Both the position numbers and the translations under genes were made by a program. The notes under the pieces are model-generated. The model ran no database searches. It was given only the letters and a program-made list of their open reading frames with translations, and was not told where the DNA came from. Below are positions 2,704 to 23,520 of a stretch of DNA of 64,000 nt, in pieces; position 1 is the first letter of the stretch, and the number at the start of each line of letters is the position of its first letter. The DNA is from Oceanispirochaeta sp. (lineage in GTDB: Bacteria; Spirochaetota; Spirochaetia; DSM-2461), in the NCBI GenBank assembly GCA_963663385.2, contig CAXXXD010000003.1, forward strand, positions 736,001-800,000, read 5' to 3'.

Positions 2704-2731
2704 GTTATACAACAAGAATCAAGGATCACAT

Positions 2732-4057
2732 ATGATATCTTCGGAATTCAAGAATAATTTTCTCAAAAGGATTACTAGAATTGATTCAATAAATGTTACA
2801 GCTACACAATGTATTGAAAAAGATCCTAATACGATAAATGGAACAGCAACTATCTTTTTTGAGAATGAAATTTTAAAAATAGTTTTTTATCCAACAAATG
2901 ATGAATTAGATTTTTTCTACCCTCCATATGAAATTGGAGCAATAATAAAAAAAGAATATTATTATAAAATTACTTTCAGCGACAAAAATGGAAAATTATG
3001 GGAAACAGATCGATTTCTGCCAAAAAGAACAATTTCTTTACCAAAAAATGAAGTTATTTGGAATTGTTCTATTAGATCGATAAAAACAATATTCTCAATG
3101 CAGGATGTGGGTGCTGCAAAAAAGTTAAATTATTTGACTATATCAGTTAAAAATAATTTAGAAATTCCAATTAATGACTACTATTGTCAAAAATGTTTAA
3201 CCGATAATTTTACATTTACAGATAATAATGTTGGAATTTGGCATATAAGGGAAGAAAATGAAAATTTCAAAATAATGAATTTAAATGGAAGCACAATAAT
3301 TAAGTTCGAAACAAATGATTTATTTCCTCAAAAGACAATAGCATCTTTACTTGGTACTATATCCTTTATGTGGGGAGAAAAAATTGAATATGAATATATT
3401 GAATATCTATATGATGATAAAAAAAGTATAGAATTATTTAATTCTCCAAATGCTGATAATAATAAGCTCAATACACCACTTGTAATGAAAACTCATGAGC
3501 ATAAAGATAATTATGACAAACTTTTTTATAAGTATTTCAAATTTATTGATAATGAAGCGAATAAGTTGATATATATACAAAATCAAATTATTGCTTCTAA
3601 TAAAACAATATTGGAAGTTTATTCATTAGTACTTTCAACTTGTATCGAAAATTTGATTAAAAATCGGTTTGATATGAAAGATAAAAAGACTATCACTGAA
3701 GTTGATTCAATAATAACATTAGTCAGAAAAAAGAATATTGAGGAAAAAATAAAAAATAGAATTTTAGGATCTTTAAATTCAATACGTAAATCACCCAAAA
3801 GAGCAAAAGACATTCTAAATGAATTATTGAACAACGGAGTCATTACAAAAGAGCAAAAAAAATCATGGGACAAACTTAGAAACTCTACAGCACATGGTTC
3901 ATATGATTTTGAGGTTTCAGATCTCTTAAAATTAACCAATGATGTATTAACACTTTATTATTTGATAATCTTTGAAATTATTGGATATAAGGGAGAATAT
4001 GTAAATTACTCAAAAAAGAATTTCCCTGTAGAATTAAATTATGCAAATGATGAATAA
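2732..4057 (+). CDS. HEPN-domain protein (ApeA-like architecture), cassette gene
   Basis: C-terminal RNSTAH (RxxxxH) motif. Start moved to ATG 2732 after AAGGA because the ORF-track start lies inside the IS end. Confidence 0.65.
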   Translation: MISSEFKNNFLKRITRIDSINVTATQCIEKDPNTINGTATIFFENEILKIVFYPTNDELDFFYPPYEIGAIIKKEYYYKITFSDKNGKLWETDRFLPKRTISLPKNEVIWNCSIRSIKTIFSMQDVGAAKKLNYLTISVKNNLEIPINDYYCQKCLTDNFTFTDNNVGIWHIREENENFKIMNLNGSTIIKFETNDLFPQKTIASLLGTISFMWGEKIEYEYIEYLYDDKKSIELFNSPNADNNKLNTPLVMKTHEHKDNYDKLFYKYFKFIDNEANKLIYIQNQIIASNKTILEVYSLVLSTCIENLIKNRFDMKDKKTITEVDSIITLVRKKNIEEKIKNRILGSLNSIRKSPKRAKDILNELLNNGVITKEQKKSWDKLRNSTAHGSYDFEVSDLLKLTNDVLTLYYLIIFEIIGYKGEYVNYSKKNFPVELNYANDE

Positions 4058-4063
4058 ATTGTT

Positions 4064-4160
4064 GTATAACAAAGCCTTGCAACTGTCATGGCAAACTGTC
4101 ACAGAAAATGCGTGGCATTTTCTGCGCCAATTCACCATGCAGCTGAAGGCGACGTTATAT
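4064..4160 (+). other. attC site (97 bp)
   Basis: GTATAAC...GTTATAT; paired arms GCCTTGCAACTG/CAGCTGAAGGC, CATGG/CCATG, CAGAAAATGC/GCATTTTCTG; 6 bp after a stop codon. Confidence 0.9.
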
Positions 4161-4396
4161 CGAACACATTTTGTACTTCTGGTTCTTTCATAATTGCCAG
4201 ATGATTTAGTAGGTTTTAGGGTTTTGATACGGGTTGATTGATGCTCACACTACACTGATTATCAATCTTTGATGTGAGCAACGGTGCTAGAGTTCCTACA
4301 TTCAGCGGCGAAAAAGTTCCGCTTTTACTGACATAAAAAGGGGCAAATATCCTAAAGTAGAGATTACCACACCTACTACAAAAGGAACCTGCCCCT

Positions 4397-5680
4397 ATGT
4401 GTCAAAAGGAAGATCGCATGCATGTAGCACGCATCATGGCCAACGAAGGCCATACTCAAAAGTATATCGCTGAGTATCTTGGTGTCAGCGACCGGATGGT
4501 AAGGAAATACCTGAATCCGGACTTCAGAACCCGTCCCAGGAAATCCCGGGAAAGCATCCTTAAACCATTCTACCCCATAATAGAAGATACCTTGGAAAAT
4601 GATCCATACTTCAACCTCGTTTATCTTCATGAGAGACTACAAAACTCCGGTTATTCTGGAAAAATGACAATCCTACGTGACTATGCCCGGAAGTACAGGA
4701 AGAAACTGATTGAGAAAGCAGTAATCCGCTTTGAAACAGAGCCGGGAAGACAGGCCCAAGTTGACTGGAAAGAATGCGGAAAAATGGAGATTGATGGCAA
4801 ACTTCAGAAAGTATATGCATTTGTCATGCTGCTGGGATATAGTAGGATCCCGTTTGTCCTTTTCTCCTTGGATATGACCTCGCCGACATTGCTCCAAGCC
4901 CATCTGATGGCATTCCGGTTCTTCGGTGCTGTTCCGAAGGAAATTCTTTACGACAACATGAGAACAGCCTGGTACAACAACGGCGGTGTCTGGCACGTGA
5001 ACTCAAAGCTCCTGGCCTTTGCTTCAGCCTGTGGTTTCACTCCTCTTCGCTGCCAAGTTCGTAGACCGCAAACTAAGGGAAAGGTAGAGCGTTTTATCGG
5101 TTACCTGGGCCACAACTTCTTGATCCGTGAAGAAGCAATGAAGAGCCGCTCAATAAACGATTTAAACCTGACTGTCTCCAAATGGATCAAAACAGTAGTG
5201 GAACAGCAGATGAGCCAATTTAAACAGACTCGAAAAGAGAGATTTGAGTACGAAAGGCAGTTTATGAACCCTTGGAACCCTGAGGCAGCTCCAGATGTAA
5301 GGCTGGTTAAAGAACTGCTTGTCTCCAGAGAAGGGTTTATTCGTTTTGAATCAAACAAGTACAGCATTCCCGCGGACTTCATAGGACAAGTTGCGACACT
5401 GAAAGTAGATACGCTGGCAAGAACTGCCGCTATCTTCATTGATGGGGCCCCTGTTAGAACCTTCAAGCTTCTGACAAAAGGTGCGAAATTAGAATCTATC
5501 CGAAAGATTGATACCGACTCACTGGTTAAACGCTGGAAGAAAGAGAATCGCATGACAAAAAGGAATGTCGTTGCCAGTGTCCCGGAAATAAAGAATACTC
5601 CCAGGTCATCATTGATGCATACAGAGGTTGATACACGCCATCCTGAAAGCTACGACAAGCTTATGGGGGTAACAGCATGA
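4397..5680 (+). CDS. istA: IS21 transposase IstA
   Basis: N-terminal HTH; RFETEPGRQAQVDW, YDNM, PQTKGKVER motifs. Confidence 0.95.
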   Translation: MCQKEDRMHVARIMANEGHTQKYIAEYLGVSDRMVRKYLNPDFRTRPRKSRESILKPFYPIIEDTLENDPYFNLVYLHERLQNSGYSGKMTILRDYARKYRKKLIEKAVIRFETEPGRQAQVDWKECGKMEIDGKLQKVYAFVMLLGYSRIPFVLFSLDMTSPTLLQAHLMAFRFFGAVPKEILYDNMRTAWYNNGGVWHVNSKLLAFASACGFTPLRCQVRRPQTKGKVERFIGYLGHNFLIREEAMKSRSINDLNLTVSKWIKTVVEQQMSQFKQTRKERFEYERQFMNPWNPEAAPDVRLVKELLVSREGFIRFESNKYSIPADFIGQVATLKVDTLARTAAIFIDGAPVRTFKLLTKGAKLESIRKIDTDSLVKRWKKENRMTKRNVVASVPEIKNTPRSSLMHTEVDTRHPESYDKLMGVTA

Positions 5681-6441
5681 ATGTACTGCAGGAGACCATA
5701 GAGATCAGGATGAACGACTTAGGGCTGGAGTTTATGGCGGCGGGGTTGGAGAGCTTCCTTGAAGCTCAATCTCACACAGAAAACACTCTCTCTCAGTCAA
5801 TTGCAGACCTATTGGAACTGGAGTACGTTCCCCGTAAGGAGAGAGCTGCAAAAAGCCGTCTGAAGCTCTCTGGAATGCCATCGATCAAGCTATTAGAGGA
5901 CTTCGACCTATCCTGGTTGAAGGGAGGATTGACCGCTGCTCAACTGGCAGAGTTTTCTAGTCTGGCTTTCATTGAAAGAAAGGAAAATCTAGTACTGATG
6001 GGGCCAAGTGGATTGGGTAAAACCCATTTGATGCTAGCTCTGGCTCATAAAGCCTGTCAGAATGGTTATACTGTATGGTATACAAGCTGCATCGATCTGA
6101 TGGAGAATCTGACCCATGCCCGGGAGCAGGGGCGGTTGAAGCGACGGCTTACCTGGCTTAGAAAGCCTCATCTCATCCTTATCGATGAAGTTGGCTACGA
6201 GAACCTGACGAAAGAACAGGCCAACTTGTTTTTTCAGATTGTAAACACCCGCTATGAACAAGGCAGTATGATCATCACCACAAACAAGTCTTTCGGTCGT
6301 TGGGCTGAGATTCTGGATGATGAAGCCATTGCGACAGCGACTATAGACAGGCTCCTTCACCATGCACATGTCCTGAGTCTTAAAGGGGATTCATACCGGA
6401 TGAAAGACCGGTTGAAAATAGGGATCGTTGATCCTGTTTAA
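5677..6441 (+). CDS. istB: IS21 helper ATPase IstB
   Basis: GPSGLGKTHL Walker A, LIDEVGY, IITTN, DRLLHH; overlaps istA stop. Confidence 0.95.
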   Translation: MNVLQETIEIRMNDLGLEFMAAGLESFLEAQSHTENTLSQSIADLLELEYVPRKERAAKSRLKLSGMPSIKLLEDFDLSWLKGGLTAAQLAEFSSLAFIERKENLVLMGPSGLGKTHLMLALAHKACQNGYTVWYTSCIDLMENLTHAREQGRLKRRLTWLRKPHLILIDEVGYENLTKEQANLFFQIVNTRYEQGSMIITTNKSFGRWAEILDDEAIATATIDRLLHHAHVLSLKGDSYRMKDRLKIGIVDPV

Positions 6442-6617
6442 TTTTACCCAGAAGCGGAACTTTTAAACCGTTGAAATGAGGAACTTTTTCACCGCTGTTG
6501 ACAATCTTTGACGCCGGTTGCGGCTGGCAGAAGTGGAAATAAGGGCATTCGCCTTCACCTACGTTTATTAAGATATTCTTGCCTGATATGGCATCGGTGA
6601 TTTACAAAATGCTGTAG

Positions 6618-6792
6618 ACATAACAAGAAAATGATACTGTCGTCGCTACAGATCACATTTCTTGCAGAGATACAGTATGCTGATAAATAGTTCTTTCTTA
6701 AAAACAAATTACTGTTTAAAATAAGTCTGCAAGAAAAGCGCCTGTACCTGTCCTTCGGCCAGGCCGCTCCGCAGCATATTTTGGCGTTATAC
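6618..6792 (+). other. attC site, unusually long (175 bp)
   Basis: ACATAAC...GTTATAC; arms AAAATGATACTG/CAGCATATTTT and TTTCTTGCAGA/TCTGCAAGAAA. Confidence 0.75.
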
Positions 6793-6811
6793 CGATACAG
6801 GGAGTTAAAAA

Positions 6812-8320
6812 ATGAAGATCTTACTTGATACAAATATTCTAATACATCGAGAATCAAATCGAGTCATAAATCAAGATATAGGTCTTCTTTTTTATTGGCT
6901 TGATAAAATGGGTTATGAAAAATGGATACACCCAGATTCAATAAATGAAATTGAAAATTACCAAGATCGTATTGTTGTTGAAACCATACGAGCTAAAATA
7001 CAAAATTATAGATTATTAAATACGTTATCCGAAGACAATGTTGATATTCAAAGAATAAGAAAAGAATTTGATAATAACAGAAATGATGAAATAGATACTA
7101 ACCTTTTAAAAGAAGTCCATAATCAGAGAATAGAATATTTCATTACAGAAGATAGAAAAATACATAAGAAAGCAAAAAGTTTAAATATTCATGATAAAGT
7201 TTTCACAATAGATTCTATTATCGAAAAATTAACCTTTGAAAATCCAGATCTAATCGAGTATCCAATCCCATCAATTAAGAAAATTTACTTTGGGAATATC
7301 GATGTAAATCAATCTTTCTTCGATTCATTTCGGGAGGATTATCCAGGATTTAACGAATGGTTCAATAAAAAATCGGAGAATGAAGCATATATTTCAGAAG
7401 TGAGTAATCATATTGTTGCCTTTTTGTATATCAAAATTGAAGACGAAAGAGAAAATTATAAAAATATAACTCCAAATTTCGCACCTCATAGAAGGTTGAA
7501 AATTGGAACTTTTAAGGTTATTTCTAATGGATATAAAATAGGTGAGCGATTCCTAAAAATAATCTTCGATAATGCTGTAATAAACAAAGTTGATGAAATA
7601 TATGTTACAATATTCTCAAATAGCTTAGAGAAAAAAATGTTGATAAATCTTCTATGCGATTGGTGTTTTACAGAATTTGGAAAAAAACATAATGCTTATG
7701 GAAATGAATTAGTTTTTATACGTAAGATATCTTCATTTGAAAATGGATATTGTAAAAATATTTTTCCAAAGATACCCTTAAATACAGATAAGTATATTGT
7801 CCCTATATATCCTGCATATCATACAAATCTTTTCCCTGATTCAATATTAAATAATGAAAGCCCAATAGATTTTATCGAGAATGAACCATTTAGAAATGCG
7901 ATACAAAAAGTTTATATCTCACGATCGATAAATAGAGAATTTAAAGAAAATGACCTTATTGTTTTTTATAGAACAGGTGGTTTCTATAAAAGTGTTATTA
8001 CTACAATAGGTATTGTGCATTCTGTTATTGACGATATTAGTTCGGAAAGAGACTTTTTAAGTCTTTGTAGAAAACGATCAGTGTTTACTGATAAAGAATT
8101 ATCAGAACATTGGAACTATAATCGAGGGAATAGACCTTTTATAGTAAATTTTCTATATTCATATTCTTTCCCTAAACGGATAAATATGGAAAAATTAATA
8201 AATTTAGGTATAATACCGGATAGATTCTCAGCTCCCAGAGGGTTTGAGCCATTATCAGACTCAAAATTTGACACAATACTTAAGGAGACCAATTCTGATG
8301 AACGTTATTTTATCCATTAA
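6812..8320 (+). CDS. PIN + GNAT + ASCH/EVE-like multidomain protein, cassette gene
   Basis: PIN motifs LLDTNILI and FITEDRKI; GNAT-like LKIGTFKV...GYKIGERFL; C-terminal IVPIYPAYH...LIVFYR segment resembling PUA-like folds. Confidence 0.7.
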   Translation: MKILLDTNILIHRESNRVINQDIGLLFYWLDKMGYEKWIHPDSINEIENYQDRIVVETIRAKIQNYRLLNTLSEDNVDIQRIRKEFDNNRNDEIDTNLLKEVHNQRIEYFITEDRKIHKKAKSLNIHDKVFTIDSIIEKLTFENPDLIEYPIPSIKKIYFGNIDVNQSFFDSFREDYPGFNEWFNKKSENEAYISEVSNHIVAFLYIKIEDERENYKNITPNFAPHRRLKIGTFKVISNGYKIGERFLKIIFDNAVINKVDEIYVTIFSNSLEKKMLINLLCDWCFTEFGKKHNAYGNELVFIRKISSFENGYCKNIFPKIPLNTDKYIVPIYPAYHTNLFPDSILNNESPIDFIENEPFRNAIQKVYISRSINREFKENDLIVFYRTGGFYKSVITTIGIVHSVIDDISSERDFLSLCRKRSVFTDKELSEHWNYNRGNRPFIVNFLYSYSFPKRINMEKLINLGIIPDRFSAPRGFEPLSDSKFDTILKETNSDERYFIH

Positions 8321-8693
8321 ACCAAAGTATGTTGATAAAATATTCAAAGGTGAGAAAACATTTGAATATAGAAAAAGTATATTTAAAAGAAATGACATAG
8401 AGAAAGTCATAATATATTCTTCATCTCCAGTAATGAAAGTTGTAGGTGAATTCAAGATTAAAGATATTTATTGTGCCAATCCTGATGAGATATGGGAGAA
8501 TACAAAATTAGAATCTGGAATTGATGAAACTTTCTTTAGGAAATATTTTGACGGGAAGGATAAAGCATTTGCAATAAAAATAAACAACCTAAAACAATAT
8601 AAAGATGAATATGATTTATTTAAAAGCTTTGGAATAAAACCACCTCAATCATTTGCATATGTAGACAACGGTATAACAAAGCTATGCAACTGA
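8298..8693 (+). CDS. ASCH-domain protein
   Basis: LSIKPKYVDKIFKGEKTFEYRK (GxKxxExR) and PPQSF; AAGGAG RBS before ATG 8298; stop codon falls inside attC. Confidence 0.85.
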   Translation: MNVILSIKPKYVDKIFKGEKTFEYRKSIFKRNDIEKVIIYSSSPVMKVVGEFKIKDIYCANPDEIWENTKLESGIDETFFRKYFDGKDKAFAIKINNLKQYKDEYDLFKSFGIKPPQSFAYVDNGITKLCN

Positions 8694-8805
8694 CCCAATT
8701 TTTGTCACGATTTTTGCCTTCGGCCGTTACGGAACTAATCGTTCCTACACTCAAAAATCACGCCAACCCTTCGGGACAATTGGGCAGCTGATAGCGATGT
8801 TATAC
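8671..8805 (+). other. attC site (135 bp)
   Basis: GTATAAC...GTTATAC; arms GCTATGCAACTG/CAGCTGATAGC, CCCAATT/AATTGGG, GATTTTTG/CAAAAATC. Confidence 0.9.
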
Positions 8806-8846
8806 GGAAAAAGATATACAAATGAATAGTATCGGAGATAATTCCA

Positions 8847-8875
8847 TTGTCTGAAATTATTGAGACTGTTAGAAT
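8847..8875 (+). promoter_or_regulatory. Putative sigma70 promoter inside the RM cassette (leaderless mRNA)
   Basis: TTGTCT-17-TAGAAT; ATG 6 nt downstream; no RBS. Confidence 0.5.
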
Positions 8876-8881
8876 ACAAAA

Positions 8882-10255
8882 ATGATGAATAATAATACGA
8901 AATATCGAATCGTTAGCCTTTTTAGTGGGTGCGGTGGCTTAGATATTCCTTTTTCAGAAGATAAATATGAATTTGCAGGAGCATATGATAATGATCCTGC
9001 TGCTATTAAATGTTTAAATCATAATCTACGATGCAATGCTAAAGTTCTAGATGTTTTAAGTGAGGACTTTACTCCAGAAATGAAGGCTGTTGGTTCCGCT
9101 GATATTGTACTTGGAGGATTTCCGTGTCAAGGTTTTTCAAAATCAGGTCCTAAAAAAGAGAATGATCCACGAAATAAATTATATAAGTCGATGCTAAATG
9201 CAGTTGATATTTTACAACCAAAAATATTCATTGCAGAAAATGTCGATGGCTTAGTTCAGAATTTCAAGGGATCTTTTGTAGAGCAAATAATAACAGATTT
9301 TAATGAAATCGGATATGATGTCGAGCATAGAATCCTAAATGCAGTAAATTATGGTGTTTCACAATATAGAAGAAGAATATTCTTTGTTGGTAAAAAAAAG
9401 GAATCAAATTCTAAATTTGATTGGCCTGAACCCAAACATGAAGGAAAAAGTAGGAATGGAGAATTCAAAACAAAATGGGATGTATTTGATCGCGATTCGT
9501 TGTTTTTTCAACATGAGATTCTACCTAGCAAAACAATAAAAGATAGTATTGAGGATTTATTAGATATAAAATCCAATATTCCTGATCATATACATTTACC
9601 AATTTCAGAGAAAGATGTTGAGATAATGAAAAATATTGGAGAAGGTAAGAAGTTATGCAATGTAAGATTTTCTAATACATCTGTATATACTTGGAACATA
9701 CCAAAAGTATTTGGAGAGATTTCTGAAAAAGAAAAAGCTATTTTGGAAATAATAGGTAAAAATCGCAGAAAAAAAATATATGGAAATATACCAAATGGTA
9801 ATCCATTATCGATTGAAGTTATTAAGGAATTATCTGGATTTGATATTTTACCAAATGAACTCAATTCTCTTATCGATAAAGGATATTTAAAATTAAAAAA
9901 TAATAAATATGACTTAAAAGGTGCAATGTTTGCTTCTGGAATATATAAAAGACCTAATTGGAATGAACCTTCACCAACTGTTCTTACTGTATTTGATAAT
10001 CCAAGGTTCTTTTTCCATCCATTAAAAAATAGACCATTCACAATCAGAGAAGCCGCTAGATTACAGTCTTTTCCTGATAGTTTTGAGTTTATTAATTCAG
10101 GTATTTCTATAAAGGATGCTTATAGATTAATTGGAAATGCTGTTCCTCCTTTACTTGCTTCTCATTTAGAAAAAGCTATTTTTAACTACTTAAATAAAGA
10201 AGGTTTTAATGAAACTAGAACTGAAAACATTAACATTAACAGAAAAGCTCAATGA
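8882..10255 (+). CDS. C5-cytosine DNA methyltransferase
   Basis: LFSGCGG, GFPCQGFS, ENV, QYRRR, REAARLQSFP, GNAVPP motifs. Confidence 0.95.
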   Translation: MMNNNTKYRIVSLFSGCGGLDIPFSEDKYEFAGAYDNDPAAIKCLNHNLRCNAKVLDVLSEDFTPEMKAVGSADIVLGGFPCQGFSKSGPKKENDPRNKLYKSMLNAVDILQPKIFIAENVDGLVQNFKGSFVEQIITDFNEIGYDVEHRILNAVNYGVSQYRRRIFFVGKKKESNSKFDWPEPKHEGKSRNGEFKTKWDVFDRDSLFFQHEILPSKTIKDSIEDLLDIKSNIPDHIHLPISEKDVEIMKNIGEGKKLCNVRFSNTSVYTWNIPKVFGEISEKEKAILEIIGKNRRKKIYGNIPNGNPLSIEVIKELSGFDILPNELNSLIDKGYLKLKNNKYDLKGAMFASGIYKRPNWNEPSPTVLTVFDNPRFFFHPLKNRPFTIREAARLQSFPDSFEFINSGISIKDAYRLIGNAVPPLLASHLEKAIFNYLNKEGFNETRTENININRKAQ

Positions 10256-11699
10256 ATTTGATTTTTGGATAACTTCCAGATTATCAGAAATTAAAGACTC
10301 AGAAAAATTTAAATCAGAGATTAATCAAATCATTAATGCCATAGAGGTTTTGGGAACTCGAACTTCTAATTTTGATAATATCGAGGATGTATCTCCTAAG
10401 AAAATATCAGAATCTATTATTTATCATGTAAAGGGTAAGACTGGAACAGAACAAGAAGTAGCAATCCTTGGACTAATCAGCTTTATTTTTATGGTTACCG
10501 GGAAATCAGATAATAACTGTAAATGTCAGTTTCCAGTATATTTGCACAAGCAATTAAATAAGGATTCTATTCCAAAGATAAACTCGAATTCCACAATCGA
10601 AAATATTCCTATTCCTAGAACTATAAATGATTCGAGAGTCGCAAAAATTGTTGCCTCATTAGATAAATCACCTTTAGAACAATATGATTTTTTGTCTTCA
10701 TATATTCATTTTCTACTGGAAGAAAAATCATACATAGATTCTTTGTGGTCATTAGGTAGAACATATTTCCAATTAAAAGAAATTGGCTACCAAGAAGCAT
10801 TTTTATTACCACTTGTTGTTTATAGAGTCAGGGGTTCTGTAAGTGCATCTGGAGGTCATGAACCTGAAGAAATATTACGGGATCGAATGATAGAATGGGG
10901 ATTAGTAAGAGAAACAGATTTTAATACTAATGATGTGATTGTTGGAGAAGTAGATAAAAAATCTAAAACAAGGGCTTATGATTTTGTCTTACCCTATAAG
11001 ATTGATAGTTGGAGCCAAAAAATATTTATTCAAAGTCAGTTTTATGCAGGTGATAGTGGAAGTGTAAGTCATAAAAATGTTGATCAAATAAGTACTTCAA
11101 GATCTCATGTCAAATCAAAAATTTCAGAACCTATCTTTTTGGAATATGTTGATGGTGCCGGATATTATAGCTCCTTAAATGGAGATTTAAAGAAAATTCT
11201 TGCTATGGATGATACAGAAGATTTTTTCCAAGTAAAGACATCAGTTGTAAAATTAAGATTCTACCTTCAAGAGATTGGTTTTATAACTCCCATGGAGATT
11301 TTTCATGGTATTCTACTTGGTAATAATCATGAAGAAAAATGTAAAAAATTCCTAGAATCGCAGGGTTATAGTGAATCTGAAATTGAAAGAAGCATTAGCA
11401 ATGCTATTTCTAGACATCTTATATCATATGATAATTCAATTCTATCAATTGCATCTGATAATATTAGGATTGCTAAAAAGTATTTCTTATTAGATGTTAT
11501 AGTAAATCATTCTAATGAAAAAAGTAAAAGAGATAAAGGATGTTTTTTTATACCAGGTAAAGGTAATCAGATGGGAATTTCTTTTACGGATCTAGGAAAG
11601 GCAATTCAGAACTATTCCTCAGATATATGGAAAGATCCCTCTGCTTTACTTGAAGATATTCAATTCCTAATAGATAAAGGGTTTGTGAGCTCTACATAG
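10209..11699 (+). CDS. Putative type II restriction endonuclease
   Basis: Overlaps the MTase in the same cassette; GHEPE...YDF...IQSQF...EYVDGAGY resembles a PD-(D/E)XK variant. Confidence 0.65.
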   Translation: MKLELKTLTLTEKLNEFDFWITSRLSEIKDSEKFKSEINQIINAIEVLGTRTSNFDNIEDVSPKKISESIIYHVKGKTGTEQEVAILGLISFIFMVTGKSDNNCKCQFPVYLHKQLNKDSIPKINSNSTIENIPIPRTINDSRVAKIVASLDKSPLEQYDFLSSYIHFLLEEKSYIDSLWSLGRTYFQLKEIGYQEAFLLPLVVYRVRGSVSASGGHEPEEILRDRMIEWGLVRETDFNTNDVIVGEVDKKSKTRAYDFVLPYKIDSWSQKIFIQSQFYAGDSGSVSHKNVDQISTSRSHVKSKISEPIFLEYVDGAGYYSSLNGDLKKILAMDDTEDFFQVKTSVVKLRFYLQEIGFITPMEIFHGILLGNNHEEKCKKFLESQGYSESEIERSISNAISRHLISYDNSILSIASDNIRIAKKYFLLDVIVNHSNEKSKRDKGCFFIPGKGNQMGISFTDLGKAIQNYSSDIWKDPSALLEDIQFLIDKGFVSST

Positions 11700-11959
11700 A
11701 AATCCGTATAAATCGGGTAGCCGGAGGCTTTTAACCTCCAGCCCCCACACCACCCTGCATGCGGGTCCGCACAGGGCGGTTCACTCCATGGAGCAAACGA
11801 AACTATAATTTGATCATGTGTAGCCCTGGATTTTACACCAGAGGGCCTTAATATTGATCAATCCTTGCTCTTCCAACCATTTATTGGACATAGCGGCATT
11901 GGTTGCATAGCCGTAAGCGGTAATTCTTCCCACATTGACAGCATTTTAGGACTGATGGA

Positions 11960-13522
11960 TCAGATTGCAATATCTTCAGCAGTTAAGTTATAGGGAAGTA
12001 ATTTTTCATAATCACTCTGTTTTTCACAGCAGGGCAATTCCCGGAAGATAAAGTACAAGTAAGCATAAACTGGAAGATTGTTCATCTTCGCAGATTCAAC
12101 GAGACTGTACAGAATTGCCGATGATTCAGCACCTTTCGGGCTTCCGGCAAAAAGCCAGTTTTTTCTCCCGATTACGAAGGGTCTGATTGCATTTTCAGCG
12201 CTATTGTTCGAAGGAGTCAAAACAGGATTTTTCAGATATAGAACCAACTGCTCCCAGTTGCTCAATGTATACTTCATCGCCTTACCGAACTCTAAAGAAG
12301 GAGGTACTTGAGGATAAAGCTTCGTCAGTTTTTTCTGTAACTTATCTAGTATCGGTTCTGCTCTATTTTGTCGCTGTTTATGAAACCCTTTTAGCGAATA
12401 ATTATCCCGTAATGATTCCAGTTCAAACAGATCCTTTATCAGGTCGAGAATTTGCTTTGCTTCTGCATCTTTTTTCTTGGTTGATTCCCAATATTGGAAG
12501 AACTTTCTTCTGGCATGGGCCCAGCATAAGACATGCTTTATATCTCCATCAACTTTTTTTCGGGCAGTATGGTAGGCCTCAAAATCATCAGTTTGAACCC
12601 AGCCAGAGTAATTTTCCAAGAAATCCAACGGAATTGCATGGGATCGGCCTTGCTCATACTGAAATATGACACATTTTTTATCGGGATCTCCTCTGAGAAA
12701 GACCCACATCCATGATTTATCTGAAGCTTTTCGTTTCGGTTCCTTTAGAACCTGAACTCTCGTCTCATCGGCATTAATAATGGAACCGGATTTAATGTTT
12801 TCTTTCAGCAAATCATATAGAGGCTTACATGCCGTTGCCGATTTTATCGTAAGATTGCTCAATGTCGCCCGGGGGATCGGTATGCCTATCTGGTTTAACC
12901 GTTTTGATTGCCTGTAGAAAGGAAGAGCGAACTCAAACTTTTCGCTTATACTCCAAGCGAGCAGGCTTTCATCGGCAATACTGCCCGCGACCAGATGCTT
13001 TGCTCCTTCTGCGGTCTGTACAGCAGCTTCATCAAGAGTCGTCCCTTCACAATTCTTGCAGGAGTACTTTTTTCTACGTTCCTGAATAACAACGACTTTT
13101 GACGGAATAATTTTTGCTCTCTCGGAAACATCTTCACCGATACAGGTCTTTTCTGTTCCGCAGGCACAGATCTTATCTTTATCCGGAATATCATATTCCA
13201 CGATCTCTCTCGGCAGATCTGCCGGCAGAGGTTTCCGGCCGGATTTTTTAATATTTTTCTTGTAGGAACCGACCTCAACCGTTTCAATAACATTTTTCTC
13301 CTGCTCTTCATCATTCTGAGCAAAAGCACTATCTTCCGCTTCATTGAAGAGAGAAGCTTGTTTCTTATCTTCGGCAGTTATCTTCTCTGATTTTGTTCCA
13401 AAGTGCAGGAGGTTCAGTTTTGCTACTTGCTCCTGGAGAATGGCATTAAGTCTTTTCAGTTCAGCAATTTCTATTTTTTGTGCATCAAGTTGTTCTCTTA
13501 AATGCTGTTCTTCATTCTCCAT
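11960..13522 (-). CDS. tnpC: IS66 transposase TnpC
   Basis: Coiled coil, CxC...CxxC finger, DDE core, GRKNWLF. Confidence 0.95.
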   Translation of the reverse strand: MENEEQHLREQLDAQKIEIAELKRLNAILQEQVAKLNLLHFGTKSEKITAEDKKQASLFNEAEDSAFAQNDEEQEKNVIETVEVGSYKKNIKKSGRKPLPADLPREIVEYDIPDKDKICACGTEKTCIGEDVSERAKIIPSKVVVIQERRKKYSCKNCEGTTLDEAAVQTAEGAKHLVAGSIADESLLAWSISEKFEFALPFYRQSKRLNQIGIPIPRATLSNLTIKSATACKPLYDLLKENIKSGSIINADETRVQVLKEPKRKASDKSWMWVFLRGDPDKKCVIFQYEQGRSHAIPLDFLENYSGWVQTDDFEAYHTARKKVDGDIKHVLCWAHARRKFFQYWESTKKKDAEAKQILDLIKDLFELESLRDNYSLKGFHKQRQNRAEPILDKLQKKLTKLYPQVPPSLEFGKAMKYTLSNWEQLVLYLKNPVLTPSNNSAENAIRPFVIGRKNWLFAGSPKGAESSAILYSLVESAKMNNLPVYAYLYFIFRELPCCEKQSDYEKLLPYNLTAEDIAI

Positions 13523-13561
13523 ACGGGGAATTCTATCAAAGTTTCTATAATTATAAAATCT

Positions 13562-13906
13562 CTAAATACGGGAATATGATAATTTTTTATGCGCTTTGAA
13601 AAAGTCTATTCCCGTCAGGAGCATTTTCAATTCATCCATGCTGATCTCTTTAGCATCTTCATCTGTTTCCGGCCAGGGATATCTGTTCTCTTCCAGTCTC
13701 TTCTGCCAGAGACAAAAACCGGTATTATCCCAGTAGACAATTTTCAGAAGTTTTCTCTGCCGGTTACAAAAGAGGAATAGCGATTTGGCGAATAAATCAT
13801 GATTCATTTCATTCTGGATAAACAGAGATAATCCGTTGATCGCTTTTCTTAAGTCTGTCGTGCCGGGTCTCAGAAAGATCCGGTATTCGTTCAGGTCAAC
13901 AAACAT
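13562..13906 (-). CDS. tnpB: IS66 accessory protein TnpB
   Basis: TDLRKAINGL, FLFCNR, KIVYWD.TGFCLWQKRLE. Confidence 0.95.
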   Translation of the reverse strand: MFVDLNEYRIFLRPGTTDLRKAINGLSLFIQNEMNHDLFAKSLFLFCNRQRKLLKIVYWDNTGFCLWQKRLEENRYPWPETDEDAKEISMDELKMLLTGIDFFKAHKKLSYSRI

Positions 13907-14202
13907 TACAACTCTCTCAGAATCTTCAGAAGATCTATCAGGGATTGCCTGTTATAACCTGATGCCAGATCCAATGAGAAATCCTTGTATCTGAGTATCA
14001 TTGTGGGGTTTTGTGGCTGTAATACCGGGGCTTTCTGTTTGATTTCAATAAAACTGCTTTTCTTTAATTTTTTTCGATTCTTGTAGAAAGATGTATAGTG
14101 AACTCCTTTATCTGCGCAGAACTCAGAAATTGTTTTCCCGCTCTGTTTTTGTTCTTCGATTAATTCAGGCCAATTCCAGTTGGTCATATTAGGTTCCTCC
14201 AT
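13906..14202 (-). CDS. tnpA: IS66 accessory protein TnpA
   Basis: W..LIEEQ..SG.TISEFC HTH; first gene of the IS66 operon. Confidence 0.85.
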   Translation of the reverse strand: MEEPNMTNWNWPELIEEQKQSGKTISEFCADKGVHYTSFYKNRKKLKKSSFIEIKQKAPVLQPQNPTMILRYKDFSLDLASGYNRQSLIDLLKILREL

Positions 14203-14459
14203 GATTTTTCATGGAGTATATAATCATTTCGAAATCACGCAAGATGGAGAGAATTACCGCTTACGCATAGCCTTTTGACAGATGCCAGTAGGACTTACTA
14301 CTTGCTCCTGTCATAATGGCAAAATCTTTCGGAATACCCAGCTCCATCAGTTTCCTGACTTTTGTTCTGGGGTAACGCCACTGTTTCCAGTAGCACATAC
14401 GGATTCTTCTTCGTAAGCGGTAATTCTTCCCACATTGACAGCATTTTAGGACTGATGGA

Positions 14460-16022
14460 TCAGATTGCAATATCTTCAGCAGTTAAGTTATAGGGAAGTA
14501 ATTTTTCATAATCACTCTGTTTTTCACAGCAGGGCAATTCCCGGAAGATAAAGTACAAGTAAGCATAAACTGGAAGATTGTTCATCTTCGCAGATTCAAC
14601 GAGACTGTACAGAATTGCCGATGATTCAGCACCTTTCGGGCTTCCGGCAAAAAGCCAGTTTTTTCTCCCGATTACGAAGGGTCTGATTGCATTTTCAGCG
14701 CTATTGTTCGAAGGAGTCAAAACAGGATTTTTCAGATATAGAACCAACTGCTCCCAGTTGCTCAATGTATACTTCATCGCCTTACCGAACTCTAAAGAAG
14801 GAGGTACTTGAGGATAAAGCTTCGTCAGTTTTTTCTGTAACTTATCTAGTATCGGTTCTGCTCTATTTTGTCGCTGTTTATGAAACCCTTTTAGCGAATA
14901 ATTATCCCGTAATGATTCCAGTTCAAACAGATCCTTTATCAGGTCGAGAATTTGCTTTGCTTCTGCATCTTTTTTCTTGGTTGATTCCCAATATTGGAAG
15001 AACTTTCTTCTGGCATGGGCCCAGCATAAGACATGCTTTATATCTCCATCAACTTTTTTTCGGGCAGTATGGTAGGCCTCAAAATCATCAGTTTGAACCC
15101 AGCCAGAGTAATTTTCCAAGAAATCCAACGGAATTGCATGGGATCGGCCTTGCTCATACTGAAATATGACACATTTTTTATCGGGATCTCCTCTGAGAAA
15201 GACCCACATCCATGATTTATCTGAAGCTTTTCGTTTCGGTTCCTTTAGAACCTGAACTCTCGTCTCATCGGCATTAATAATGGAACCGGATTTAATGTTT
15301 TCTTTCAGCAAATCATATAGAGGCTTACATGCCGTTGCCGATTTTATCGTAAGATTGCTCAATGTCGCCCGGGGGATCGGTATGCCTATCTGGTTTAACC
15401 GTTTTGATTGCCTGTAGAAAGGAAGAGCGAACTCAAACTTTTCGCTTATACTCCAAGCGAGCAGGCTTTCATCGGCAATACTGCCCGCGACCAGATGCTT
15501 TGCTCCTTCTGCGGTCTGTACAGCAGCTTCATCAAGAGTCGTCCCTTCACAATTCTTGCAGGAGTACTTTTTTCTACGTTCCTGAATAACAACGACTTTT
15601 GACGGAATAATTTTTGCTCTCTCGGAAACATCTTCACCGATACAGGTCTTTTCTGTTCCGCAGGCACAGATCTTATCTTTATCCGGAATATCATATTCCA
15701 CGATCTCTCTCGGCAGATCTGCCGGCAGAGGTTTCCGGCCGGATTTTTTAATATTTTTCTTGTAGGAACCGACCTCAACCGTTTCAATAACATTTTTCTC
15801 CTGCTCTTCATCATTCTGAGCAAAAGCACTATCTTCCGCTTCATTGAAGAGAGAAGCTTGTTTCTTATCTTCGGCAGTTATCTTCTCTGATTTTGTTCCA
15901 AAGTGCAGGAGGTTCAGTTTTGCTACTTGCTCCTGGAGAATGGCATTAAGTCTTTTCAGTTCAGCAATTTCTATTTTTTGTGCATCAAGTTGTTCTCTTA
16001 AATGCTGTTCTTCATTCTCCAT
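14460..16022 (-). CDS. tnpC: IS66 transposase TnpC
   Basis: Identical translation to 11960-13522. Confidence 0.95.
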   Translation of the reverse strand: MENEEQHLREQLDAQKIEIAELKRLNAILQEQVAKLNLLHFGTKSEKITAEDKKQASLFNEAEDSAFAQNDEEQEKNVIETVEVGSYKKNIKKSGRKPLPADLPREIVEYDIPDKDKICACGTEKTCIGEDVSERAKIIPSKVVVIQERRKKYSCKNCEGTTLDEAAVQTAEGAKHLVAGSIADESLLAWSISEKFEFALPFYRQSKRLNQIGIPIPRATLSNLTIKSATACKPLYDLLKENIKSGSIINADETRVQVLKEPKRKASDKSWMWVFLRGDPDKKCVIFQYEQGRSHAIPLDFLENYSGWVQTDDFEAYHTARKKVDGDIKHVLCWAHARRKFFQYWESTKKKDAEAKQILDLIKDLFELESLRDNYSLKGFHKQRQNRAEPILDKLQKKLTKLYPQVPPSLEFGKAMKYTLSNWEQLVLYLKNPVLTPSNNSAENAIRPFVIGRKNWLFAGSPKGAESSAILYSLVESAKMNNLPVYAYLYFIFRELPCCEKQSDYEKLLPYNLTAEDIAI

Positions 16023-16061
16023 ACGGGGAATTCTATCAAAGTTTCTATAATTATAAAATCT

Positions 16062-16406
16062 CTAAATACGGGAATATGATAATTTTTTATGCGCTTTGAA
16101 AAAGTCTATTCCCGTCAGGAGCATTTTCAATTCATCCATGCTGATCTCTTTAGCATCTTCATCTGTTTCCGGCCAGGGATATCTGTTCTCTTCCAGTCTC
16201 TTCTGCCAGAGACAAAAACCGGTATTATCCCAGTAGACAATTTTCAGAAGTTTTCTCTGCCGGTTACAAAAGAGGAATAGCGATTTGGCGAATAAATCAT
16301 GATTCATTTCATTCTGGATAAACAGAGATAATCCGTTGATCGCTTTTCTTAAGTCTGTCGTGCCGGGTCTCAGAAAGATCCGGTATTCGTTCAGGTCAAC
16401 AAACAT
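16062..16406 (-). CDS. tnpB: IS66 accessory protein TnpB
   Basis: Identical translation to 13562-13906. Confidence 0.95.
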   Translation of the reverse strand: MFVDLNEYRIFLRPGTTDLRKAINGLSLFIQNEMNHDLFAKSLFLFCNRQRKLLKIVYWDNTGFCLWQKRLEENRYPWPETDEDAKEISMDELKMLLTGIDFFKAHKKLSYSRI

Positions 16407-16702
16407 TACAACTCTCTCAGAATCTTCAGAAGATCTATCAGGGATTGCCTGTTATAACCTGATGCCAGATCCAATGAGAAATCCTTGTATCTGAGTATCA
16501 TTGTGGGGTTTTGTGGCTGTAATACCGGGGCTTTCTGTTTGATTTCAATAAAACTGCTTTTCTTTAATTTTTTTCGATTCTTGTAGAAAGATGTATAGTG
16601 AACTCCTTTATCTGCGCAGAACTCAGAAATTGTTTTCCCGCTCTGTTTTTGTTCTTCGATTAATTCAGGCCAATTCCAGTTGGTCATATTAGGTTCCTCC
16701 AT
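16406..16702 (-). CDS. tnpA: IS66 accessory protein TnpA
   Basis: Identical translation to 13906-14202. Confidence 0.85.
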   Translation of the reverse strand: MEEPNMTNWNWPELIEEQKQSGKTISEFCADKGVHYTSFYKNRKKLKKSSFIEIKQKAPVLQPQNPTMILRYKDFSLDLASGYNRQSLIDLLKILREL

Positions 16703-16764
16703 GATTTTTCATGGAGTATATAATCATTTCGAAATCACGCAAGATGGAGAGAATTACCGCTTAC

Positions 16765-19152
16765 ACTTTAAAAGAAGAATTAGACGAGTATATCCCACTT
16801 TATGACAGATTCAAGAAATATTTCGGTTATATGGACAAGGGATTTAAAGGTAAAAAGTATGAAATTTATGCCTATAATGGCGGGCTTTTTGCACCTGATG
16901 AGATTCTAGATAATATTTGTATCGATGATGAAATTCTCCATGAACATACTGTTAAGCTCAGTACTTATGATTTTGATACAGAAGTTGATGTAAATATTCT
17001 CGGGCATATTTTTGAACACTCATTAGGAGAAATCGAAAATGTACAAGCTCAAATCTTAGGCGAGAAAGTTGATAATCAAAAGACCAAACGTAAAAAAGAT
17101 GGCATCTTCTATACACCAAAATATATTACTAAATACATAGTTGAAAACACATTGGGCAAGTTTTGTGAGCAAAAGCGAAAAGAGCTTGACATTATTGACG
17201 AGGAATATGCTAAGGGTCGTAAGAATCGGAAGAAATCAACCATAATAGACTTAAATGATAAACTAAACATATATCGTGAATGGTTGTTGTCATTATCAAT
17301 ACTCGACCCAGCCTGTGGGTCTGGTGCATTTCTAAATCAGACTGTAGAATTCTTAATTGAAGAACATAAGAAAATTGACGAACTCCGTGCTCGAATGTAT
17401 GAAGATAGTTTGGTTTTTTCCGATATAACAACTGAAATCCTTGAAAAAAATATTTACGGTGTCGATTTAAATGAAGAATCAGTAGAAATTGCTAAACTGT
17501 CTCTTTGGTTACGTACAGCCGAAAAAGGGCGGAAACTAAATTCGCTCAGCAAAAATATTAAATGCGGAAATTCATTGATTGTGGATCCTAAAGTTGCAGG
17601 TGAAAAAGCATTTATCTGGGAAAACGAATTCCCTGAAATATTTGCGAATGGTGGGTTTGATGTGATTATTGGGAATCCGCCATATGTTCACCTTGAAAAA
17701 ATAAAAGAGACATCTGTTGCATTGAAAGATGCAAAATACGAAACTTACCATAGCCAGGGTGATATTTATTGTGTATTTGTAGAAAAAGGAATTGATATAT
17801 TAAAACAGAATGGGTTGATTTCTTATATTATGCCAAACAAGTGGTTGCAGGCAGGGTATGGAAGACCTCTCAGAGAGTATTTTCTTAAATACAAAATGTT
17901 AGAATTAATTGATTTCGGTGATATTCAAATATTTGAAGGAGCAACCACCTATCCTTGTATTTTTATTTCTCAAAAAGCAGAACCTCAAGAAGAAATTTCT
18001 ATTTCAGTATTAAAAGAATCAAATTCAATTGACTTTAAATTTAATGTAACCGAAACAGCTGAAATATTTGATGCAAAAACGTTTAGTGGTGATACTTGGG
18101 TAATAACCTCAAAAAAGGAAAAAGCGTTTTTAGAAACACTACAAAAAAAATATAATAAACTATCTGATTTTATAGATGGACAGGCTTTTTATGGGTTAAA
18201 AACAGGCTTGACTGAAGCTTTTTTAATTAATGAAGAAACAAAGCATAATATCATAAATAAAGATCAAAAAGCAAGTGAAAGAATTGAGCCATTTCTGCAA
18301 GGACGGGATATCATCAGATACAATACTGTAACACCATCAAGTCATTTAATTTTATTCGAAAAAGGTTTTACTAATGAACATATTAAGGATTCATCACAAG
18401 CTACAAGCTGGTTAAATTCAAAATATCCATCAATTGCAAGCTGGTTAGCTCCATTTGAAGAAAAAGGTAAGAAACGTACAGACAAAGGAGATTACTGGTG
18501 GGAACTACGGGCTTGCGATTATTATTCAGAATTTGCTAAGCCCAAAATAATGTATCAAAAATTTCAAGTAAAACCTTGCTTTATTTATGATGAGCAAGGA
18601 TTGTATTGTAATGATTCCATGTGGATTATACCAACAGAAAATAAAGCCCTTTTAGGTGTATTGAACTCAAAAATGGGGTGGTGGCTAATAACAAAATACT
18701 GTACACAAATACAAAATGGCTGCCAGTTAATTTGGAAATACTTCGGACAAATCCCTATACCTAATATTGATTCATCTGAATTAACTGAATTGGTGGAAAC
18801 AATGTTGGATAGAACTAGTGTTCATCAGGCTAGAACAAGATCGTTTCTTAAATATTTGTCTTCAAAGTTTAGTATAGAAAATTTTACTAAAAAACTTGAA
18901 AACTGGTCAGAATTAGATTTCTCAAACTTCTTAAAAGAACTGAATATAGGCATTAAAAAATCAGGTAGTAACAAACTCTCCAAGTCTGATGAAATGGAAT
19001 GGATGGAACTATTTGAAACAAAAAAAACTGAAGTTCAGGCATTAAAAACATTAATTGTAAATACAGATAATGAAATAAACAAATTGGTTTATGAATTGTA
19101 TGGTTTGAATGAAGAGGAGATAAAAATTGTTGAAGGTTCACATTCTTCATGA
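16765..19152 (+). pseudogene. 5'-truncated type IIG-like (Eco57I/TaqI-like) N6-adenine MTase-specificity protein
   Basis: GIFYTP, ILDPACGSGAFL, FDVIIGNPPY motifs and a C-terminal TRD; the first 18 codons of the ORF call are IS66 sequence. Confidence 0.8.
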
Positions 19153-19211
19153 CGGTTTATGGTAAAGAAGTCACCTAATTCATACATATGTACCGATGTG
19201 GGCCTTATTTA

Positions 19212-19306
19212 GTATCAAAGCCTTGCAACTGTCATGGCAAACTGTCACAGAAAATGCTTGGCATTTTCTGCGCCAATTCACCATGCAGCTGAAGGCGATG
19301 TTGAGA
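19212..19306 (+). other. attC site with damaged inverse core; near-copy of attC 4064-4160
   Basis: 19216-19302 matches 4070-4156 at 85 of 87 positions; GTATAAC reduced to GTATC. Confidence 0.85.
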
Positions 19307-19367: not shown

Positions 19368-20333
19368 ATGAAACCACCGTATGATATAACTAAAACGATA
19401 TTGGATTTATATGGGCAAATAACAGAAGCATTAGGAATATGCCAGAGTTTAATGCTTGTAAAACCAGAAGCTCGTTTACGCCGGCAAAATCGTATTAAAA
19501 CAATACAATCATCTCTAGCGATCGAAGGTAATACATTAAATATTGAGAACGTAACAGCATTACTTGATAATCAAAGAATTATTGGACCTGAAAAAGATAT
19601 TATTGAAGTACAAAATGCCATAAAGGCATATGAGAGCCTGATCACATTAAAGCCTCACAATAAAAAAGATTTCCTTTTAGCGCATAAAATACTAATGAAT
19701 GATTTAGTGAAAACACCTGGAGAATATAGAAAATCCCAGGTTGGAATAATGAAGGGAAAAGAAGTAGCACATATTGCTCCCACATCAGATATGGTTCCTG
19801 GTCTTATGAATGATTTGTTCAAATACTTGAAAGAAGATTCCGACTTAGAAATTATTAAAAGTTGCGTCTTTCATTATGAGGTGGAGTTCATCCATCCATT
19901 TGAAGATGGTAATGGAAGAATGGGAAGATATTGGCAAACACGAATACTAATGAATGTAAACCCAATCTTTGAGTTTGTACCCATTGAGAAACTTATAAAA
20001 GATAATCAAAAAGAATATTACCATGCCTTAGCACTATCAGAGAATACAGGCAAATCAACCGTATTTATCGAGTTTATGTTGAATGTCATAAATGAAGCAT
20101 TAAGAGATACAATTAATAAATCAAAGCCAACAAGTCCTGATTTTCATAAACGTTCAGAGATAGCTCTCTCTCAGCTGGATGGTTGGTTTGATAGAAAAGA
20201 GTACATGCAAGTCTGTAAAGGAATCTCAAGTGCTACAGCGAGCAGAGATTTAAAGCAATTACTTGATGAAAACAGAATTGAATCTTCCGGAAAGGGGAGA
20301 ATGACAAAATATAGAAATAAAAGGGATGGATAA
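19368..20333 (+). CDS. Fic-family protein with C-terminal wHTH
   Basis: HPFEDGNGRMGR catalytic loop; SSLAIEGN inhibitory motif; ISSATASRDL HTH. Confidence 0.92.
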   Translation: MKPPYDITKTILDLYGQITEALGICQSLMLVKPEARLRRQNRIKTIQSSLAIEGNTLNIENVTALLDNQRIIGPEKDIIEVQNAIKAYESLITLKPHNKKDFLLAHKILMNDLVKTPGEYRKSQVGIMKGKEVAHIAPTSDMVPGLMNDLFKYLKEDSDLEIIKSCVFHYEVEFIHPFEDGNGRMGRYWQTRILMNVNPIFEFVPIEKLIKDNQKEYYHALALSENTGKSTVFIEFMLNVINEALRDTINKSKPTSPDFHKRSEIALSQLDGWFDRKEYMQVCKGISSATASRDLKQLLDENRIESSGKGRMTKYRNKRDG

Positions 20334-20347
20334 CAAAAACTTGCAGC
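20328..20347 (+). other. Left part of an attC site, cut by intron insertion
   Basis: GGATAACAAAAACTTGCAGC parallels GTATAACAAAGCCTTGCAAC; overlaps the fic stop codon. Confidence 0.65.
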
Positions 20348-20995: not shown

Positions 20996-21053
20996 CAGCT
21001 TTACGGTCTGCTGCTGAAAACGGTGTTCTAAAGACAAAGGTAAAATACATTGA

Positions 21054-23451: not shown

Positions 23452-23469
23452 GTTATGAATAATTCAGGA

Positions 23470-23498: not shown

Positions 23499-23520
23499 AT
23501 ATGCACTTGGAGGTTGATAA

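Follow-up and report, generated by a model that had tools for sequence, protein, structure and literature searches.

Operons in which a (PIN)-GNAT-EVE protein is encoded together with an ASCH protein are predicted toxin-antitoxin (TA) or defence modules, none of them characterised, according to Bell et al. 2020 (PMC7641849; this and all other literature below is cited from the available part of its text), who credit Iyer et al. 2013 for the computational description of the operon. The same source states that these operons almost always encode the ASCH protein, that the PIN form is found near restriction-modification (RM) and CRISPR loci and that the short form is found in prophages. The same architecture, with PIN_15/PIN_17, appears in Matelska et al. 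2017 (PMC5499597), and PADLOC-DB v2.0 catalogues as 'phage defence candidate' PDC-M11 a pair of proteins, M11A and M11B, a candidate that is defined by genomic association. Here, we describe such a pair in a 64,000-nucleotide stretch of the genome of Oceanispirochaeta sp. (hereafter the window; contig CAXXXD010000003.1, positions 736,001 to 800,000). Gene A (6812-8320, + strand, ATG start) encodes a PIN-GNAT-like-EVE protein of 502 amino acids (PDC-M11A) and gene B (8298-8693, + strand, ATG start) a stand-alone ASCH protein of 131 amino acids (PDC-M11B); they are the only genes of an integron-type gene cassette of about 2.0 kb (~6787-8799, + strand, 26-32% GC). What is directly established is a conserved, horizontally mobile pair of genes in a cassette, together with its domains and the family to which it belongs, and we propose with moderate confidence that the pair is a toxin-antitoxin-like anti-phage (abortive-infection) module.

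Protein A aligns with the PADLOC profile PDLC04422 (PDC-M11A) with an E-value (E) of 1.7e-203 and 675 bits, residues 1-501 covering profile positions 1-500 of 501, and five other PDC-M11A profiles also match it. Protein B matches PDLC04425 (PDC-M11B) over its full length (E 1.4e-49), and its gene adjoins gene A in the same orientation. We found no structural difference between PDC-M11 and the A/B pair which, judged by these end-to-end matches of both proteins, belongs to PDC-M11 and is not a new kind of system. The novelty implied by an earlier, sequence-only reading of the locus is thereby lost, as the PADLOC check that it had itself named for this purpose returned a catalogued candidate. Its view of the locus as a defence or TA system, on the other hand, agrees with the PDC-M11 listing, with Bell et al. 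2020 (PMC7641849) and with the GevT/GevA annotation described below. Its remark that similar fusions had been noted computationally, with no established mechanism, holds for the searchable literature, where PDC-M11 is represented by two survey mentions only and by no functional report. Domain order, a separate ASCH gene and proximity to RM genes are common to the A/B locus and the described (PIN)-GNAT-EVE plus ASCH operons. These operons frequently, but not obligatorily, include an accessory AAA_17 ATPase or type I RM genes, whereas the A/B cassette has neither and is neighboured by type II and type IIG, not type I, RM cassettes. Packaging as an integron cassette is not mentioned in the available text of Bell et al. 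2020 or Matelska et al. 2017.

In the list of open reading frames (ORFs), gene B extends from a TTG codon (8244-8693). Most probably, translation begins at the ATG at 8298, because homologues, profile and ribosome-binding site all agree on it: each of the 22 displayed rows of a 44-row alignment (A2) begins at this methionine, conservation of M1 across the 44 rows is 90% or higher, the PADLOC profile aligns from residue 1, and the Shine-Dalgarno sequence AAGGAG (8282-8287, + strand) lies within the 3' end of gene A, 10 nt upstream of the ATG. A Shine-Dalgarno-like GGGAG (6800-6804, + strand) is found 7 nt ahead of the ATG of gene A. With gene B starting at 8298, the two genes, both on the + strand, have 23 nt in common, and ORF coordinates give overlaps of 23-26 nt in three of four related loci as well. 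The earlier view that two overlapping genes share one cassette was correct. The GC content of the cassette region is 0.263-0.316, compared with ~0.45-0.52 in the core genome, i.e., the right half of the window.

Full-length protein A has no Pfam match even at E <= 10 and no NCBIfam match. An AlphaFold2 model based on 104 homologues has a mean predicted local distance difference test score (pLDDT) of 94.1 and a predicted template modelling score of 0.87. The N-terminal PIN nuclease domain (residues 1-145; 6812-7246, + strand) reaches a pLDDT of 90.0 when the first 148 residues are modelled alone; its best Foldseek matches in the PDB are PIN/VapC proteins (AF0591, 1o4w, E 2.3e-4; PAE2754; VapC15), its look-alikes in the Atlas are PIN clusters (0.95 and 0.94), and Pfam PIN_3 matches weakly, below the cut-off (E 0.019). 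The acidic residues D6, E14, D95 and D114 are kept in 67, 66, 67 and 71, respectively, of the 84 PIN-bearing rows of the alignment of A with its homologues (A1). By fold search with the model, a PIN fold with all four acidic residues is confirmed, in line with the intact nuclease that had been suspected from the sequence. The fold and the four acidic residues are common to VapC-type PIN toxins; unlike VapC systems, the A/B pair has no VapB-type antitoxin, its PIN domain is fused to GNAT-EVE, and sequence similarity is low.

The middle domain of protein A (residues ~150-308; 7259-7735, + strand) has a GNAT-like acyltransferase fold. Its top Foldseek matches, down to about E 3e-4, are GNAT N-acetyltransferases (Naa60, 5icw, E 4.6e-6; NatD; Ard1; Naa50), and the sole match of the A profile among PDB sequences is Naa50 (6yzz, E 0.016, positions 226-289). 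Conservation in alignment A1 is high at W183 (100%), K230 (98%), G240 (93%), G244 (91%), Y264 (97%), T266 (98%) and E299 (98%), and the most conserved polar residues of the whole protein sit in this domain (K208, E210, K230, E245, Y264, T266 and E299, each 94-98%). Some relatives pass the Pfam Acetyltransf_1 threshold (P0269, E 5.9e-5; P0256, E 1.8e-4). The C-terminal domain (residues ~315-502; 7754-8317, + strand), previously read as ASCH, turned out to be an EVE-type PUA-like domain. Foldseek matches it to the EVE protein THYN1 with 5-methylcytosine DNA (5j3e_B, E 1.8e-4) and to the ASCH protein of Zymomonas mobilis, ZmASCH (5y6c_A, template modelling score 0.76). Protein A itself has no Pfam EVE match at E <= 10; the homologues P0014 (E 1.2e-5), P0247 and P0160 do match, and Pfam EVE is precomputed in 2 of 120 homologues among the matches listed. 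Conserved residues of this domain in A are P319, K366, Y386 and R422.

Protein B is a stand-alone ASCH protein, as had been predicted, with a Pfam ASCH match at E 3.4e-6. Its GxKxxExR motif is intact (G18, K20, E23, R25), with K20, E23 and R25 invariant in alignment A2, as are P-Q-S at positions 116-118 of the C-terminal PPQS motif. The closest solved relative is ZmASCH (5GUQ, 5GUS, 5Y6B, 5Y6C), whose structures 5gus/5guq are matched by the B profile over residues 3-125 at E ~1e-19. The GxKxxExR motif, a tyrosine equivalent to Y40 of B and the PPQS serine (Ser128 of ZmASCH, S118 of B) are common to both proteins. ASCH proteins with GxKxxExR remove N4-acetylcytidine (ac4C) from tRNA, and the lysine and the glutamate of the motif are essential (preprint 10.64898/2026.02.27.708502). 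By the available text of this preprint, all tested ASCH proteins were active on tRNA in vitro, with ZmASCH the least active of them on ac4C. Nucleic-acid binding by ZmASCH has been described as well (PMC5615036).

The family to which the pair is assigned is large. At least 5,539 relatives were found at E <= 0.001 among 8,000 candidates scored, and clustering at 50% identity gave 1,839 representatives. Among the matches listed, the best non-self match shares 83% identity with A and the rest share 54-60%. Named members derive from Nitrospirae, Thermodesulfobacteriota, Bacteroidota, Calditrichia, Gammaproteobacteria, Paenibacillus and three archaeal metagenome-assembled genomes (MAGs). Plasmids contribute 33 records and phage collections 16, 14 of which cover just the GNAT-EVE part (from residues ~131-160 to 502). 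A PIN-GNAT-type relative with 28% identity over A residues 1-429 is located at 8233-9534 of Methanothermobacter phage psiM100, within a feature annotated 'inserted fragment IFa / ORFD' (hits H43/H44); by this sequence match, the family is also carried on an archaeal virus insert.

A query with a single protein yielded four related genome loci, in the three archaeal MAGs and in Paenibacillus faecis. In all four, a B homologue lies directly 3' of the A homologue and the pair is lower in GC than its flanks. An attC-like hairpin after B was found in none of the four, and carriage on a cassette therefore belongs to this window and not to the family. Architectural variants were sought among 34 relatives of atypical length or match offset. 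Nearly half of these (16/34) carry an N-terminal ASCH/DUF3850 fusion, as ASCH-PIN-GNAT-EVE or ASCH-GNAT-EVE (e.g., P0146). P0127 has a C-terminal B-like domain that is 39.5% identical to B and retains both of its motifs, which makes it a PIN-GNAT-EVE-ASCH fusion of A and B. In P0269, the PIN domain is replaced by TIR (TIR_2, E 1.7e-13; TIR-GNAT-EVE), and many relatives have no N-terminal domain. The alternation of PIN, TIR or nothing at the N-terminus suggests effector swapping typical of defence proteins.

An annotated counterpart is a pair in Escherichia phage PhiR47_2 (PV340567.1), labelled GevT toxin and GevA antitoxin and located directly downstream of cI. GevT is 38% identical to A residues 160-502 (E 3e-56) and GevA 44% identical to B (E 5e-39). 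They fall into the PADLOC family of A and B, and their genes overlap in the same manner. Unlike A, GevT has no PIN domain and resides in a lambdoid phage. Copies of GevT/GevA with at least 99% identity occur in 275 of 5,426 complete E. coli genomes and are always chromosomal.

The cassette that carries genes A and B was delimited by its attC-like sites. Both arms of the 9-bp inverted repeat noted by the sequence-only reading are present (GTTATACCG at 6786-6794 and CGGTATAAC at 8669-8677), and GTTATAC occurs 13 times in the window versus 4.08 expected, a count reached by 0 of 100 shuffles. The end of the cassette, however, was misplaced by that reading: it lies neither at the repeat (8677) nor at 8693. 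The right arm is the R'' box (GTATAAC, 8671-8677) of a 135-nt attC-like site (8671-8805, + strand) with its R' box (GTTATAC) at 8799-8805, which puts the end of the A/B cassette near 8799; the final ~8 codons of gene B are within this attC. The folding energy of the hairpin is -28.2 kcal/mol for the bottom strand and -23.1 kcal/mol for the top strand; its R and L boxes pair, and some bases of the stem are left unpaired. Such features characterise integron attC sites, which recombine as the bottom strand. The opening 22 nt are repeated at 4064 and 19210 (repeat family D9), the starts of two further attC-like sites, 4064-4160 (-29.0 kcal/mol bottom, -20.6 top) and 19210-19306 (-26.3 bottom, -18.7 top), which are 97% identical over 90 nt. 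On the left, the attC-like site of an upstream cassette disrupted by an IS21-family insertion sequence (IS) lies at 6618-6792 (+ strand; -26.5 kcal/mol bottom versus -23.3 top, R boxes paired); it is the least regular of the attC sites in the window, and its R' core GTTATAC (6786-6792) forms the left boundary of the A/B cassette.

The attC calls are based on manual folding and on tests of end complementarity. A covariance model was dropped as the central parts of the seven candidate sites vary in length, which makes for a poor alignment, and an initial scan (R boxes with at most one mismatch, energy below -18) was unspecific, as it also picked up numerous long folds in the core genome, where GC is higher. 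The rationale of the end test is that the first bases of a circularised cassette complete its own attC. Of the first 12 nt of the A/B cassette, 10 (9 of them contiguous) agree with the reverse complement of its own R'' region, compared with 8/12 and 7 contiguous when the start of the next cassette is set against the same R''; for the cassette at 2704-4160, the match to its own R'' is 12/12 and that of the neighbour-start control 7/12. The left arm of the inverted repeat is therefore the old core site together with the cassette start, and the right arm is the R'' of the cassette itself.

The ATG of gene A follows the cassette boundary after just 19 nt, too short a distance for a promoter within the cassette. 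No promoter-like site was found within 6787-6811, and the region 6400-9000 holds 16 such sites versus 15.5 expected; the cassette thus lacks a promoter, which is usual for integron cassettes. All cassette ORFs from 2732 to 24133 are on the + strand. As an IS21-family element lies upstream, transcription into A and B must traverse or begin in this element. A tyrosine recombinase (intI, Phage_integrase-type) was not matched among the 56 distinct window ORFs scanned, and the window thus contains an attC array without a visible integrase. The array leaves the left end of the window behind two IS elements, so the integrase could sit outside.

The small upstream cassette is interrupted by the IS21-family element (~4272-6513), which encodes IstA (rve) and IstB (E 7.8e-74) and has, by eye from the sequence, terminal inverted repeats and an 8-bp duplication, ATCTTTGA. 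Further to the left, the cassette at 2704-4160 contains a single 441-aa ORF (2732-4057, 25% GC) without a Pfam, NCBIfam or PADLOC match. Downstream of A/B, the cassette at 8882-11699 encodes a C5 cytosine methyltransferase (E 5.9e-65) that overlaps a 496-aa ORF; this ORF has no match in Pfam or NCBIfam and no meaningful one in PADLOC, and its position makes a novel type II restriction enzyme possible. Next come two IS66 copies that are 100% identical and lie in direct tandem at a spacing of 2,500 bp (11912-16911; TnpC E 8e-85, TnpB E 2.2e-34). They seemingly lie inside the attC region of the methyltransferase cassette, with a candidate R'' near 11704-11712. The next ORF (16711-19152) encodes a type IIG restriction-methyltransferase (PADLOC E 1.6e-212, matching the profile only from 261 of 1066). 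It lacks the N-terminal part, where a nuclease would be expected, starts at the IS66 end and is followed by the attC at 19210-19306; the gene was probably truncated by the IS.

A Fic-domain protein (19368-20333; PADLOC SoFic, E 7.7e-47) occupies its own cassette position. The adjoining stretch 20329-21031 begins like an attC site (GGATAAC, a spacer and a box like that of the other sites) and continues into an ORF for part of a reverse transcriptase (RVT_1 E 1.9e-21, limited to profile positions 100-193), possibly a group II intron remnant. Some group II introns target attC sites. The last recognisable cassette contains a Phd/YefM-ParE toxin-antitoxin pair (23418-24133; E 1.2e-15 and 5.2e-15). 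The 39 nt ahead of its core site are 100% identical to the stretch 2670-2708 ahead of the core site at 2704. A 53-nt stretch near the start of a DDE transposase gene (1035-1087 within 986-2530) recurs with 91% identity at 24155-24207, directly past the Phd/ParE cassette and at the shift to core-genome GC; this repeat may be an IS remnant that marks the right edge of the array.

We propose a TA-like defence module because the N-terminal domain is exchangeable, the short form is annotated as toxin and antitoxin, and the cassette stands in the company of RM, Fic and TA genes. Protein A would be the harmful effector. Its EVE domain would dock it on nucleic acid with a particular (modified) base, its GNAT-like domain would acylate that nucleic acid or a charged tRNA, or else bind an acyl-CoA or nucleotide signal, and its N-terminal PIN RNase would cut RNA. 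As long as the cell is uninfected, protein B, translationally coupled to A, would hold A in a harmless state, whether by undoing the modification as an ASCH amidohydrolase of the GxKxxExR type, like DarG against DarT, or by occupying the nucleic-acid target of A; infection would then tip the balance between A and B. An enzymatic antidote is attractive, given that tRNA is stripped of ac4C by ASCH proteins that share the motif of B, and B is possibly a deacetylase antidote. By the same analogy, the writer/reader/eraser acetylation switch of the earlier reading is plausible. A more specific version, a reversible base-acylation toxin-antidote system, we regard as doubtful: the GNAT domain, steered by EVE, would write an acyl mark (e.g., N4-acetylcytosine) on RNA or DNA, the ASCH protein would erase it, and the domain in the N-terminal slot would execute once the mark accumulates during infection. 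Prediction of an A+B complex (alignments A1 and A2, no controls) scored 0.00 against a mark of 0.32, which weighs neither way on binding.

DarT-DarG and the GNAT toxins AtaT, TacT and ItaT resemble the A/B pair in their proposed mode of action only (general knowledge and Bell et al. 2020). The proposed common logic is a toxin that modifies nucleic acid or charged tRNA and a partner that neutralises it, enzymatically in the case of DarG. The A/B antidote is an ASCH protein, not a macrodomain as in DarG or a DNA-binding antitoxin, and A has additional PIN and EVE domains. A single GNAT toxin structure (7byy) came up in the fold search with A, as the 47th match, and at the sequence level A/B is a member of neither group.

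Several findings weigh against a TA-like module, or against its acetylation chemistry. Although the GNAT fold called by the sequence-only reading stands, the acetyl-CoA loop of a classic acetyltransferase does not: A has N239-G-Y-K-I-G244 where Naa50 has R-G-I-G-I-G, which departs from the R/Q-x-x-G-x-G/A pattern of motif A, and Matelska et al. 2017 (PMC5499597) consider the domain to be probably without acetyltransferase activity. The conserved G240 and G244 make a variant loop possible. ZmASCH was inactive on free ac4C, and in E. coli cells it brought about no significant decrease in the ac4C of tRNA (10.64898/2026.02.27.708502), and it had earlier been reported as a weak Mg-dependent nuclease of single-stranded RNA (PMC5615036). 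The fused ASCH-A forms speak against a classical labile antitoxin; they indicate that B acts together with A and not as a separately degraded antitoxin. The GevT/GevA label is that of a database record whose source we did not find in the searchable literature, nor did we find there any experiment on a PIN-bearing family member. Finally, the flanks of the four related loci contain no clear defence genes among the ORFs scanned. Exceptions are generic helicase matches in L004, an archaeal locus, and an AAA_17 ATPase in L003 of Paenibacillus faecis (5446-5997, E 1.4e-13), which ends 4 nt ahead of the A homologue; Bell et al. 2020 (PMC7641849) describe AAA_17 as an accessory ATPase of these operons.

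The altered loop and the inactivity argued by Matelska et al. 2017 would fit a sensor-effector without acetylation, in which a dead GNAT-like domain and EVE sense, PIN is the sole effector, and B is a second reader of modified bases that sets specificity or regulates expression instead of erasing. The N-terminal slot, which varies between PIN, TIR and nothing, is compatible with this model, as are nucleic-acid binding by ZmASCH and the HTH-ASCH and HsdS-ASCH fusions from which the ASCH partner has been proposed to bind modified DNA (Bell et al. 2020, PMC7641849). Yet PIN-less GNAT-EVE proteins are annotated as toxins, so the core seems harmful without PIN; moreover, polar residues of the GNAT-like domain are conserved at 94-98% and some relatives pass Pfam Acetyltransf_1, and we rate this model as rather improbable. 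That the pair is an addiction module which stabilises the cassette array, and not primarily a phage defence, is unlikely in our judgement. The Phd/ParE cassette in the same array, the toxin/antitoxin label of the PhiR47_2 relatives and the stabilisation of integrons by TA cassettes (preprint 10.1101/2024.07.02.601686) speak for it, but the family is found mostly outside integrons, as at the four related loci, occurs in a cI-adjacent prophage slot and on plasmids, and is listed by PADLOC as a defence candidate.

Removal of ac4C from tRNA by ASCH proteins and the frequency of PUA-like domains in RNA-modification enzymes (Bell et al. 2020, PMC7641849) would also suit a housekeeping pair without a role in conflict, in which one protein would add acetyl marks to tRNA or rRNA and the other remove them. 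The patchy distribution over bacteria and archaea at 55-60% identity, the low GC of the pair relative to its flanks at all four related loci, the carriage on a cassette, prophages and plasmids, and the fusion to PIN or TIR render this highly improbable. We give equally little credence to a role as counter-defence or inter-element weapon, in which the phage GNAT-EVE form would shield phages against host restriction and the host PIN form would counteract it through degradation of acetylated aminoacyl-tRNA (Bell et al. 2020, PMC7641849). The occurrence of the short form in prophages and of the PIN form near RM genes in that source, and the PIN-less state of 14 of the 16 phage records, accord with the idea; it is, however, pure speculation in Bell et al. 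2020, and the short form in a lysogeny-expressed slot next to cI fits prophage-encoded protection of the host.

What the present locus adds to PDC-M11 is modest: promoterless carriage as an integron cassette and, among relatives, the fused ASCH forms and the replacement of PIN by TIR. The latter two suggest an exchangeable N-terminal effector and an ASCH protein that cooperates with the large protein. The family extends over bacteria, archaea, plasmids and prophages, yet its mechanism was not found in the searchable literature and is worth a test at the bench. With the acidic residues of PIN and the ASCH motif intact, the A/B pair is a compact, self-contained example of 2 kb and a reasonable construct for a first biochemical test. 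A PADLOC candidate in the form of a promoterless cassette beside RM, Fic and Phd/ParE genes is in keeping with the recent idea that chromosomal integrons store genes for defence. If the base-acylation reading were true, the family would be an equivalent of DarTG that works with acetyl groups, and it would provide the newly described ASCH erasers with their first physiological writer.

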